A stretch of 64,000 nucleotides of DNA from Pseudomonadota bacterium (GTDB lineage: Bacteria > Pseudomonadota > Alphaproteobacteria > Rhizobiales > Rhizobiaceae). A program made the translations under genes and the position numbers. The stretch covers positions 219,011-283,010 of the forward strand of contig JBCBHU010000003.1 in assembly GCA_038525315.1 (NCBI GenBank). Direction: 5' to 3'. The notes beneath the pieces were generated by a model. It did not search any database and was not told where the DNA came from. It saw only the letters and a list, made by a program, of their open reading frames with translations. Below, piece by piece: positions 52,328-54,259 of this stretch. Position 1 is the stretch's first letter. Every line of letters begins with the position of its first letter.

Positions 52328-52371
52328 CAATCGCCCTTCCCGCCAAATACCGAACATTGAGACAAGAAAAC

Positions 52372-52407
52372 AAAAAGGCCGTGTCGGGGCTTTCCCAACA
52401 CGGCCTT
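52372..52407 (-). terminator. Rho-independent terminator (serves the minus-strand CARDB gene, possibly bidirectional)
   Basis: aaaaaggccgtgt-cggggctttccca-acacggcctt hairpin with an A-tract on the left. Confidence 0.7.
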
Positions 52408-52592
52408 GCTCGTTTTACGATATCCAAAGTGGCAAGGCATTCATTGAAAGATCAAAACCCTGCCAACAGGCAAAGGCGGTGCCCAAGGAACTTTACGTCC
52501 CATTCAAACCGAAAACCGCCGCTTCTTTTACGGCAAAGCACAGTCCGCGTGTGCGATTTTCGATAGGTCCCGTTTCGCTCTGAACGGGCTTT

Positions 52593-53957
52593 TTAACTGG
52601 CCCAGCCGAAACCTCCAACGCCACCAAGCCATTCGGAATAGGGAAGGCTTTCAAATGTGGCGAATGCGCCGAGGTCTGCATACCAACCCAGATACCAACC
52701 CATATTCCAGCCGACGCTCCATGCGCTTCCGTCAAAATACCAGCCCATGTTCCATCCCATGGACCAGCCATAGTCATAGTGCCAACCCCAGCCCGTGCCG
52801 GTCAGTTTTCCGGGGCTCAGTTCAGGCCCTTTCGCGATACGCCCGTAATTGTTGCCCTGTCCGATGCCGGCACCCAGACCGGTATTGGCCCAACCGTAAT
52901 AAGTGGCACCGCCCCAGCCCCAACCGCCGTTCATTCTGCCTTCGGCATACATCAAATCGCCGAGTTGGCTATGATAGGTGGTGTAGGTCACTTCGCCCCA
53001 GCCGTAATACCAGCCAAAATCATTATACCAGCCAAAATACCAACCGACATTCCAACCATAGAGCCAAGCGGAACCGTCGAAATACCAGCCCAGGTTCCAG
53101 CCTATACCCCACCCATATTCCAGGTGCGAGCCATTATACCAACCCAGCGCAACTGTCTCCGTTTCGATGGCAACGGTCTCAACCTGGTAATACCAGCCCG
53201 TAAATGTCCCCTGATCATAGGGATCATTGACGCTGCCCTGATCGACATATTGGACAGGGGCATCTTCGTTATTGGATGTGTTTTGTTCGTTCTCCCCATA
53301 CAAATAGGCTTTCAGGTAGAACGTCTCTCCTTCAAAGTTGTCATAGGTGTATAGCGTGCCGGTAATACTCCCACTTTCGCCGGGATCAACACTTTCAATG
53401 CTCTCAGAATCGCTGTTGTTGCTGCCAATGGTCCCATCGCCGGCCCGTATGCCCCCATGGCCTTCAATCGCAGCACCGCCCACATTGGTGTAATTGATCG
53501 TGTAACCAATCTCACCGGTGCTTTCGTAGTTGGAATAATCATACACAACACTGTCGAGCTGAAGATCGCCGTACAGGGCCGGATTGTTGTTGATCGTAAA
53601 TTCCACGCCAGACGACGCGTTGTTCATCTCATCGCTTTCCGCGATGCGATTGTCACCATCAACGATTGCGAAAATGTAGTATTCACCCTGAATAACGTTA
53701 TTTGACGGATAAATATAAAAATTGTCCGTACGCGAACTACCGGCGTTAATGCTGCTCAGATAGTCTTCGCCGATAAACGTGTCGTTTATATCAAGGATAT
53801 TGTCATCAGAGATATAATAGTGGGTGCGCGTATTACTGGCGGTTTCATCGCCGTTATTGGCAACTTCGATCTCAATATTGATCTCGCCTCCACCGGTAAA
53901 CGTCGTGGTCCATGAGGAATCGATGTTGATACTGGTAATGCTAAGGTCGATAGCCAT
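52593..53957 (-). CDS. Hypothetical protein: two CARDB-like Ig domains + Gly/Trp/Tyr-rich repeat C-terminal domain
   Basis: GGAGG RBS 7 nt before ATG 53957. CARDB hallmarks DLSITSI, EVANNGD, YYISDD, GEYYIFAIVDGDNRIAESDEMNN, and a second DLQLDSV...TNVG...ENEQNTSNN unit. C-terminal ~205 aa contain 25 Trp. Confidence 0.8.
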   Translation of the reverse strand: MAIDLSITSINIDSSWTTTFTGGGEINIEIEVANNGDETASNTRTHYYISDDNILDINDTFIGEDYLSSINAGSSRTDNFYIYPSNNVIQGEYYIFAIVDGDNRIAESDEMNNASSGVEFTINNNPALYGDLQLDSVVYDYSNYESTGEIGYTINYTNVGGAAIEGHGGIRAGDGTIGSNNSDSESIESVDPGESGSITGTLYTYDNFEGETFYLKAYLYGENEQNTSNNEDAPVQYVDQGSVNDPYDQGTFTGWYYQVETVAIETETVALGWYNGSHLEYGWGIGWNLGWYFDGSAWLYGWNVGWYFGWYNDFGWYYGWGEVTYTTYHSQLGDLMYAEGRMNGGWGWGGATYYGWANTGLGAGIGQGNNYGRIAKGPELSPGKLTGTGWGWHYDYGWSMGWNMGWYFDGSAWSVGWNMGWYLGWYADLGAFATFESLPYSEWLGGVGGFGWAS

Positions 53958-54259
53958 GGCTAACCCCTCCAAGGTTGTGACGTCGGCGGCATAAACGCCG
54001 TTGGCACGTCGCTTTGATTTTCAACCTGCTGATGAATTACGCCCCAGCCCCATCAACCAAGCTGGTTTACTTGCCCCAGCGCGCCCCCGCGACCCCGTGC
54101 AAAATAAGGTGTTGGCCGCGCATGACGGGTCACCTACGCGCAGGAGAGTAGCGAAAAAATGAGAATGCACAATGCTTTAGCGACAAAAGTGCGACATTTG
54201 CGTATATTGAAGGCCTAATGTGTTCGATGGGCCACTAGGGTCATCTGAGGAAAACCGCC

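Follow-up and report, generated by a model that had tools for sequence, protein, structure and literature searches.

A tryptophan-rich GWxx repeat module at the C termini of 28 alphaproteobacterial proteins, a possible tag of type I secretion substrates

The stretch of DNA analyzed here (64,000 nucleotides of contig JBCBHU010000003.1 in the Rhizobiaceae genome assembly GCA_038525315.1, positions 219,011 to 283,010; hereafter, the window) carries on its minus strand a gene for a 454-residue protein, P0001, whose C-terminal part consists largely of tetrapeptide repeats of the form Gly-Trp-x-x (GWxx). The same kind of C terminus, referred to below as the GW module, is found in 27 other open reading frames (ORFs) of this genome, where it follows a variety of N-terminal (passenger) regions. 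On the evidence of the searches described below, the module is undescribed and matches no known protein family. Its sequence and distribution suggest that it might be a lineage-specific C-terminal tag for the export and retention of type I secretion system (T1SS) substrates, a reading whose probability can be put at roughly 45%.

This proposal draws on two observations: the module ends approximately 28 acidic, virtually Cys-free proteins that lack signal peptides, and, in a GW-less member of the same genus, RTX repeats with a T1SS C terminus occupy the same position. In the proposed mechanism, GW proteins would be routed out of the cell by a T1SS, for which a pair of genes encoding an ATP-binding cassette (ABC) protein and a membrane fusion protein (MFP) is the candidate exporter. 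After export, the GW tails would hold the proteins at the cell surface or co-assemble through their Trp faces, possibly together with small proteins that consist of little else than GW repeats. P0001 itself would then be a modular protein of the extracellular type, with two immunoglobulin (Ig)-like, CARDB-type passenger domains followed by the GW module.

In the following, G000 is the window's own genome (3.5 Mb, 97% complete), G001 is the GTDB representative of its sister species, and G003 and G013 are congeners that lack GW proteins. P0002 is the syntenic orthologue of P0001 from assembly GCA_039198355.1; P0003 is a distant full-length relative from the ENA metagenome assembly ERZ23498655; P0009 is a canonical member of the GW family, 233 aa in length; and L149 is an M10 protease-GW protein from a JGI metagenome. 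Loci of G000 outside the window are given as contig and positions, e.g., G000:C2:270021-273174.

The GW family in the genome of the window

The preliminary description of P0001 had presented it as an orphan protein. A protein search of G000 with P0001 pointed to a dozen further places with GW repeats, and a six-frame scan for ORFs ending in (GWxx)n enumerated 28 ORFs that end in the GW module, including P0001 itself. Given these 27 paralogues with homologous tails, in addition to orthologues in other genomes, P0001 is not an orphan. That description had proposed searching with the GW domain alone for the passengers fused to it, and at least five kinds are present in G000: Pfam recognizes CARDB, PD40 beta-propeller, RTX (HemolysinCabind), Peptidase_M10, and PPC domains among the family members. 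One more passenger is alpha/beta-hydrolase-like, and several N-terminal parts have no Pfam match at all. The recognized passengers are of kinds known from extracellular proteins or T1SS substrates: CARDB domains commonly occur in proteins that are secreted or displayed on the surface, and the M10 class of metalloproteases includes the serralysins. At least 3 paralogues have RTX repeats, by Pfam, immediately before the GW tail.

The GW region is C-terminal in every one of the 28 proteins, all of which have a predicted isoelectric point (pI) of ∼4.1. Cys residues are absent from 25 of them and number 1 to 3 in the other three. N-terminal hydrophobicity, gauged by a simple heuristic rather than by SignalP, reaches at most 1.57 in the family, as compared with 1.9 to 2.3 in three signal-peptide controls. 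Four small members (91 to 199 aa, encoded at G000:C6:169616-171153 and C3:64060-64659) have no passenger domain and consist almost entirely of GW/WxxxW repeats, with up to 24% Trp. If the tails co-assemble, these GW-only mini-proteins may be candidate core subunits.

The GW genes of G000 occur singly or in runs of 2 to 4, scattered among housekeeping genes, and no gene family recurs in their neighborhoods. The family seems, from such placements, to spread as single-gene islets with no visible mobility genes. GW genes also sit within otherwise strongly conserved core gene clusters. Thus, two GW genes of the sister species directly follow rplJ-rplL (L237 8001-11226, GCA_039198355.1), and the gene for P0003 (L137 6001-7359) lies between a UDG-family gene and lepB-rnc-era-recO, where G000 has a 154-nt gap.

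Conservation of tails and passengers

Between P0001 and P0002, which are 63 to 64% identical, the dN/dS ratio is 0.075 for the whole protein and 0.17 for the GW part. Their dS has reached saturation, and their dN is ∼4 to 5 times that of the flanking housekeeping genes. The preliminary description had considered that the ORF might show no purifying selection in its relatives; by this comparison, it is a real gene under purifying selection. In three other syntenic orthologue pairs, the tails are more conserved than the passengers, with identities of 96% versus 32%, 67% versus 38%, and 81% versus 58%. In the pair formed by G000:C1:388278-389057 and L239 8001-8741, the 81-aa tail is 96% identical (dN 0.015, dS 0.44) and the passenger is 32% identical (dN 0.75), which points to passenger replacement or to strong diversifying selection on a passenger joined to a constant tail. 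Across the GW tails, dN/dS ranges from 0.03 to 0.17. A constant tail with a variable passenger would be the pattern expected of a handle that bears varied, probably exposed, passengers.

Link to type I secretion

The genome of G000 encodes five T1SS ABC/HlyD pairs. In the GW-less congener G013, the PD40 homologue ends, in place of the GW module, in long RTX arrays followed by a classical T1SS C terminus. The ABC/MFP pair G000:C2:270021-273174, the candidate exporter, is 96% identical in G001; a search for it in 29 other genomes of the genus was negative at E ≤ 1e-60. Its locus (C2:270021-273833) encodes a divergent PrtD-type ABC protein with the signature LSRSQ instead of LSGGQ, together with the MFP and two short conserved ORFs. 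Beside the pair, no large gene stands out as an obvious substrate; downstream of the MFP gene there are just small ORFs with no known function.

A syntenic orthologue of this pair, 56% identical (56 to 65% over the orthologue set), is present in ERZ23498655, the assembly that contains P0003. The ferrochelatase of that lineage is 77% identical to those of G000 and G001 each and 76 to 79% identical to those of GW-less congeners, so that by this marker it stands no nearer to the former than to the latter. The link that this co-occurrence makes between the exporter and the GW family is suggestive only, as the two sequences share a sample but not necessarily a genome and the lineage was placed by a single marker.

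T1SS pairs 1 and 2 were rejected as GW-specific exporters on the grounds that they have relatives in GW-less congeners or are absent from the sister species; pair 3 adjoins a gene for a protein of >1950 aa that, judging by size and position only, is likely its own substrate. A T1SS locus at G000:C1:772924-784003 combines ABC and MFP genes with a 614-aa ORF, possibly the outer-membrane component, next to an ORF of >1950 aa that, from its size and position only, may be an adhesin-like substrate. Compared with G001, the ABC gene of this locus shows 96% identity; with four congeners, identity does not exceed 46%. The ORFs upstream of the locus (C1:764-770 kb) look phage-like by eye.

Distribution and searches for known relatives

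A HMMER search with residues 250 to 454 of P0001 against 1.84 billion representative proteins found five proteins. With the whole protein as the query, word-indexed searches of 5.8 billion clusters returned 6 proteins, and a family profile returned 16; almost all of these come from G000 and three or four related metagenome-assembled genomes, and their NCBI names go no further than "hypothetical protein" or "CARDB domain-containing protein." The family has 24 matches in the sister species G001 and none in 23 other genomes of the genus or in 16 other families of the order. No real match was found among 400 genomes drawn across the class, where the sole hit (G115) is a junk frame of GWRR repeats.

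Outside the main clade, there are two true relatives, P0003, which is 31 to 34% identical to P0001 over the full length, and L149. The latter was the one true relative in a metagenome scan with the module profile, in which 79 of the 80 loci listed were in-frame microsatellite junk. A search of 185k species genomes for GWxx repeated five times in succession likewise listed almost exclusively 12-nt microsatellites read in frame (e.g., GWLVGWLV) and was set aside as uninformative on distribution. As judged from these searches, the GW family is extremely narrowly distributed.

The preliminary description recognized no named family in the GW block, and profile searches agree. Neither the GW region of P0001 nor any of ten GW modules matches a Pfam family at E ≤ 10, which covers the type IX secretion system (T9SS) C-terminal domain, the curlin repeat, the Listeria GW module, and porins. 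The only NCBIfam match to P0001 at E ≤ 10 (9.9 bits) falls in its N-terminal part, a sequence search of the PDB likewise gave no match to the GW region, and the best hit of a PDB profile search with the 81-aa module (E 0.24) is spurious. The WXXGXW family (PF12779; YXWGXW repeat) has no match in P0001 (E ≤ 10) or in G000 (E ≤ 1), and Choline_bind_1 (PF01473) has none in G000 (E ≤ 1) or in ten GW modules (E ≤ 10). The searchable literature contained nothing on a GW module in bacterial secretion, only papers on GW182, Plasmodium, and a beta-lactamase motif.

Architecture and predicted fold of the module

The canonical GW module is 81 aa long and can be aligned without gaps among ten paralogues. 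It consists of ∼9 GWxx repeats, a turn such as YFDGSA, another ∼9 GWxx repeats, and a final WGW. In a set of 418 GWxx units, Gly fills the first position in 88% and Trp the second in 100%, while the third is mostly Asn, His, Tyr, Gly, or Thr and the fourth mostly Val, Tyr, Leu, or Phe; charged residues are scarce (2.5%). With the Asp-Gly pair of the turn as the center of symmetry, Trp occupies exactly mirrored positions in the two arms. The numbers of repeats flanking the turns (9/9, 9/10, 8/8, 11/11, 12/10, 6/6, and 3/4) are closely matched; in 30 of the 44 pairs of neighboring arms, the difference is no more than one repeat, with a modal linker of 6 residues of the YFDGSA type. One protein has a nested 11-(3/3)-11 arrangement, and one paralogue is short of one repeat in each arm. 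The correlation of arm lengths (r = 0.61) has an overstated significance, as paralogues are not independent, but the pattern recurs at four arm sizes, those of 3, 6, 9, and 11 to 12 repeats.

Because the arms are length-matched across Asp/Asn-Gly turns, they point to paired hairpins rather than to the beta-solenoid that had been considered in the preliminary description. Most likely, as far as the repeat pattern can tell, the two arms of a pair fold back on one another into a hairpin that sets their tryptophans opposite each other, which would amount to a long, naturally occurring "tryptophan zipper." With the arms as strands, Trp and the fourth residue of each repeat would lie on an aromatic/hydrophobic face, and Gly and the third residue would lie on a small/polar face.

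Whether the arms are strands or helices is where structure prediction diverges. For P0001, AlphaFold draws beta hairpins at both DGSA turns, with strands 285 to 294 and 299 to 308 around the first of them, at a predicted local distance difference test (pLDDT) of 20 to 36. For P0009, modeled from an 11-sequence alignment, it draws an alpha-helical hairpin with helices 152 to 179 and 184 to 214 at a pLDDT of ∼50. The latter model fits an alternative in which the arms are alpha-helices packed against each other through a continuous glycine zipper, given that Gly at every fourth residue amounts to a run of GxxxG, an established helix-packing motif. The confidence of that model is only ∼50, however, and AlphaFold's model of P0001 has beta hairpins instead. 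The composition of the repeats (25% Gly, with Asn, Tyr, Val, and Trp and almost no Ala, Leu, Glu, or Lys) favors beta structure, as does their Chou-Fasman propensity (1.13 for beta versus 0.89 for alpha), and the two-residue Asp/Asn-Gly center is a classic tight beta-turn. On geometric grounds, an exact period of 4.0 residues would drift by 40 degrees per repeat on a helix of 3.6 residues per turn and, over 36 residues, could not hold a single Gly stripe in one interface. For these reasons, beta arms are somewhat favored, and helical arms, while deserving real weight, are considered unlikely. There is also a substantial chance that the fold of the module is itself new.

Alternative explanations

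Several observations weigh against the GW module being an export and retention tag of T1SS substrates. No sorting enzyme, chaperone, or dedicated transporter recurs within 6 kb of all GW genes, and no T1SS gene is adjacent to any of them. P0001 itself has no Pfam match to RTX repeats (PF00353), which agrees with the preliminary description, and, in the comparison with P0002, conservation is not higher in its GW part than in its passenger. The co-occurrence of GW proteins and the C2 exporter pair comes down to close relatives plus one metagenome in which both were found in the same sample and is, accordingly, phylogenetically confounded. The AlphaFold models of the GW part are of low confidence and contradict each other. 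Finally, sequence conservation is not usual among T1SS signals, and the tag may therefore have a role only after secretion or belong to a different route. The export and retention tag is still the explanation favored by the present evidence, in line with the noncanonical secretion or anchoring signal listed among the options in the preliminary description. An extended version of it, in which the C2 pair exports ∼28 cargoes that co-assemble with GW-only mini-proteins into a surface matrix of stacked Trp residues displaying enzymes and adhesins, would add both a new natural fold class, Trp-zipped beta-ribbons of up to ∼100 Å, and an unknown T1SS-linked sorting and assembly system; taken as a whole, this version is a long shot.

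Amyloid formation, glycan binding, ice binding, and membrane insertion, all raised in the preliminary description, are kept as possible rivals. The module could instead be a carbohydrate- or polymer-binding platform, flat and aromatic like type A carbohydrate-binding modules (CBMs) or choline-binding repeats, which tethers secreted enzymes and adhesins to a polysaccharide and has no role in export. The polysaccharide might be chitin, cellulose, or an algal glycan, or else a capsule or lipopolysaccharide (LPS) made by the cell itself. The proposed hairpin would indeed carry a continuous Trp/Tyr/Phe/Val strip on one face, the passengers include enzymes (an M10 protease and an alpha/beta-hydrolase-like protein) and adhesin-type domains, and the sequence GWYFDGSAW resembles the WYYFDxxG core of choline-binding repeats. 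However, the genome-wide search for Choline_bind_1 was negative, Pfam found no CBM match, and the spacing from one Trp to that four residues further along a strand, ∼13.6 Å by our own geometric estimate, differs from the 10.3-Å cellobiose repeat. Glycan binding would also leave the exit of 28 proteins without signal peptides unexplained and is judged rather improbable.

Another explanation, which overlaps the retention half of the tag proposal, is an amyloid-like, self-assembling matrix: GW-only mini-proteins would polymerize through their Trp faces, the tails of larger proteins would co-polymerize with them, and the resulting fiber or sheet would display enzymes and adhesins. The existence of four GW-only proteins, the uncharged amphipathic arms with Asn/His ladders on one face, and the far greater conservation of tails than of passengers are all consistent with it. 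The matched arms equally fit a monomeric hairpin, however, and no chaperone or nucleator genes such as csgB/E/F/G or fapA-F recur near the GW genes, so that the matrix by itself is seen as improbable.

Still less probable is the insertion of the module into membranes, with amphipathic hairpins forming an oligomeric beta-barrel or lying in the outer leaflet of the outer membrane and either anchoring the passenger or making pores in target cells. The arms are uncharged and strictly alternate between a hydrophobic/aromatic and a Gly/polar face, and Trp and Tyr favor membrane interfaces, as is well established for beta-barrels and beta-pore-forming toxins. Against this, the canonical arms, at ∼36 residues, are 3 to 4 times as long as a membrane-spanning strand (those of P0001 are short, but the protein has only two hairpins), no porin, autotransporter, or toxin family is matched, and the passengers look adhesin- or enzyme-like rather than toxin-like.

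The notion that the GW region is nonfunctional low complexity or an artefact of repetitive DNA, in keeping with public GWxx pattern scans that mostly return in-frame 12-nt microsatellites, is effectively refuted by the selection and alignment data: the repeats of this family are not identical at the DNA level, their third and fourth residues vary with position-specific preferences, the paralogues align without gaps, and the tails have the low dN/dS ratios and, in one pair, the 96% identity next to a 32% identical passenger described above.

The window gene and its locus

The features of the gene and its surroundings are listed in Table 1. The ORF opens with ATG, and its product contains 26 Trp residues, 25 of them within residues 250 to 454 and 22 of those as GW, spaced mostly by exactly 4 residues. 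These counts bear out the preliminary description, as do the two GW blocks (each with 3 to 5 GWxx, YFDGSA, and 4 GWxx), the strongly acidic composition (58 Asp plus Glu versus 9 Lys plus Arg; pI ∼4.1; no Cys), the strong ribosome-binding site (GGAGG 8 nt upstream of the ATG), and the partly AT-richer gene, in which GC content is 0.47 to 0.49 in the N-terminal, passenger half versus ∼0.59 in the flanks. By the same heuristic as above, the N terminus is not signal peptide-like (1.35 versus 1.9 to 2.3 in the controls), in agreement with the claimed lack of a Sec signal.

Table 1. Features of the GW gene and its flanks (positions in the window)
Feature	Position	Strand	Basis
CARDB-Ig-GW protein P0001, complete coding sequence (454 aa plus stop)	52593..53957	-	ORF; orthologue P0002
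Shine-Dalgarno sequence GGAGG, 8 nt before ATG, conserved in the orthologue	53966..53970	-	Sequence
CARDB domain, residues 4-115	53613..53948	-	PF07705; PDB 2kut (E 6e-4); AlphaFold beta-sandwich
Second Ig-like, divergent CARDB-like beta-sandwich (predicted), residues ∼126-240	53238..53582	-	AlphaFold; weak similarity; Foldseek
GW C-terminal domain, residues 250-454	52596..53210	-	Homologous to C termini of 27 paralogues
Predicted GW hairpin A, residues 282-311: 3 GWxx, YFDGSA turn, 4 GWxx	53025..53114	-	Repeat anatomy
Middle segment, residues 312-396: GWYYGWG, conserved HxQLGDL, Gly-rich loop (GGWGWGG...GLGAGIGQG)	52770..53024	-	
Predicted GW hairpin B, residues 397-426: 3 GWxx, YFDGSA turn, 4 GWxx	52680..52769	-	Repeat anatomy
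C-terminal tail, residues 427-454, ending in G-x-(F/W)GW	52596..52679	-	Alignment
54-nt upstream block with palindrome AACCAGCTTGGTT	54014..54067	-	Near-identity to the orthologous locus
CGCG-GGGG-CGCG mini-hairpin with G4 loop	54080..54091	-	Motif class enriched upstream of GW-family genes
3' untranslated region with three terminator-like hairpins (52516-52536, 52458-52475, 52375-52407)	52375..52536	-	

The tandem CARDB-like domains of the preliminary description stand in part. The first domain is a clear CARDB match (PF07705; 56.5 bits against a gathering cutoff of 22.7; E 3.4e-15). The second has no Pfam match at E ≤ 10 and is a beta-sandwich by AlphaFold only, with strands predicted at a pLDDT of 60 to 85; its similarity to the first domain is in register but weak (E 0.11), with the C-terminal NN motifs aligned. 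It is best described, on the basis of the model, as Ig-like and CARDB-like without being assigned to the CARDB family. A Foldseek search with the P0001 model retrieved tandem beta-sandwich proteins, the best match being RbmA of Vibrio cholerae (E 6e-9).

P0001, P0002, P0003, P0007, and the two paralogues encoded at C3:348752-352070 make up a divergent subfamily. These proteins have two short hairpins (3 to 5 plus 4 repeats each), the conserved HxQLGDL segment, and the Gly-rich loop. The middle segment is the least conserved part of P0001 (52% identity to the orthologue), and the G-x-(F/W)GW ending is common to P0002, P0003, and the paralogues.

Upstream of the gene, the 54-nt block is nearly identical at the orthologous locus of the sister species, despite the saturation of synonymous sites, and is found at this locus alone in the genome; it is probably the promoter or operator of the GW gene. 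Mini-hairpins of the form NNCG-GGGG-CGNN, with a 4-bp GC stem and a G4 loop, occur in 35 copies in the whole of G000, and 5 of these lie on the sense strand within 300 nt upstream of GW-family genes, against an expected 0.04. In addition to the window gene, the genes concerned are at G000:C1:652514, C3:350580, C5:145673, and C6:170878. The core sequence CGGGGGC is present within 150 nt upstream of 9 of 29 GW genes (expected, 0.8). The enrichment suggests that the mini-hairpin may be a regulatory element shared by the GW family; at least one copy doubles as the terminator of the upstream gene.

Downstream, the claim that the gene has its own terminator holds only for hairpins at some distance. 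The hairpin that immediately follows the stop codon has a T-run on the opposite strand and none on the gene strand, whereas the terminator-like hairpins lie further downstream, and the one at 52375-52407 is shared with the convergent tgt gene. A weak match to the Rfam trpB noncoding RNA motif (RF04312; 52367-52464, minus strand) overlaps this shared terminator with 32 bits, below the gathering score of 59, and an E value of 0.055; this match in the 3' untranslated region of a Trp-rich gene was treated as probably due to chance.

The convergent spacer between tgt and the GW gene (52328-52592; 266 nt) is mostly absent from the orthologous locus, where the spacer is ∼100 nt. The gene order at the P0002 locus (LysE, GW gene, TGT) is syntenic with the window. 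In the congener G003 (L241 2652-4149), the genes for DUF4864 and then queA directly follow tgt, with no GW gene at this place. Relative to G003, G000 and G001 have the block lysE-coaD-ppi-ppi-queA-DUF4864 in the reverse orientation, with the GW gene at the junction, so the gene sits at a lineage-specific rearrangement breakpoint. With the region rearranged, no clean empty site beside tgt could be demonstrated in the congeners, only the absence of the GW gene in G003.

Significance and comparison with known systems

If the tag proposal is correct, more than two dozen proteins of the exported type in a small bacterial lineage would share an undescribed C-terminal module, a new entry among the few tags for protein sorting and anchoring. 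It would also provide a recognizable substrate tag conserved in sequence, which T1SS generally lack. Long hairpins with Trp at every fourth residue would be the first natural counterpart of designed tryptophan zippers and relevant to structural biology and protein materials. A Trp content of 20 to 25% in the tails carries a high metabolic cost, which argues for an important function. The compactness of the family, with a canonical module of 81 aa and GW-only proteins as small as the 91-aa one encoded at C6:170355-170630, makes it directly testable.

Among known systems, RTX/serralysin-type T1SS substrates share with GW proteins the lack of an N-terminal signal, the acidic and virtually Cys-free composition, Gly-rich C-terminal repeats of short period, and diverse passengers of M10 protease, lipase-like, and adhesin-like kinds; acidity, absence of Cys, and Gly-rich repeats are general traits of RTX substrates, whose nonapeptide repeats are accompanied by a C-terminal signal that is not cleaved. 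T1SS machinery is present in G000, and some GW proteins keep RTX repeats upstream of the tail. In contrast, the GW repeat is GWxx rather than GGxGxDxUx, contains 25% Trp and no Ca2+-binding Asp, and is almost uncharged. RTX repeats form a stacked beta-roll, whereas paired hairpin arms are proposed here, and the secretion of GW proteins is predicted from sequence.

Shared C-terminal sorting and docking modules, such as the Por_Secre_tail C-terminal domain of T9SS, dockerin, PEP-CTERM, SLH, and choline-binding modules, similarly place one module of ∼60 to 100 aa on many unrelated secreted proteins of a genome and are more conserved than their passengers. The GW module has no sequence similarity to any of them and has neither the transmembrane helix nor the basic tail of PEP-CTERM. 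It further differs from them in that no dedicated sorting enzyme or receptor recurs near the GW genes and in its confinement to a few related genomes of the alphaproteobacterial type.

The WXXGXW (PF12779) and glycine-zipper motifs resemble the GW module in their short Gly/Trp repeats and in Gly at every fourth residue, but glycine zippers comprise 2 to 3 repeats in helices, as opposed to 9 repeats in matched pairs. RbmA of V. cholerae and other tandem Ig/FnIII-like matrix and adhesin proteins resemble only the passenger part of P0001. RbmA carries a signal peptide and lacks a GW tail, and TM-scores of 0.19 to 0.33 at 13% identity indicate a generic resemblance of folds, not homology.

The designed tryptophan-zipper (trpzip) beta-hairpin peptides, reportedly the work of Cochran et al. 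in 2001, have cross-strand Trp-Trp pairs at a tight Asp/Asn-Gly turn and, along one face of the two-stranded ribbon, Trp at alternate positions, the arrangement predicted here for the GW hairpins, whose Trp pairs may be in either an H-bonded or a non-H-bonded register. Trpzips are synthetic peptides of 12 to 16 residues with a 4-residue linker from Trp to Trp, whereas the GW arms are natural, reach ∼36 to 48 residues, and are joined by a 6-residue linker. By analogy, the GW module would be nearest in function to the C termini of RTX-type T1SS substrates and to shared sorting and docking modules and nearest in structure to the designed trpzips.

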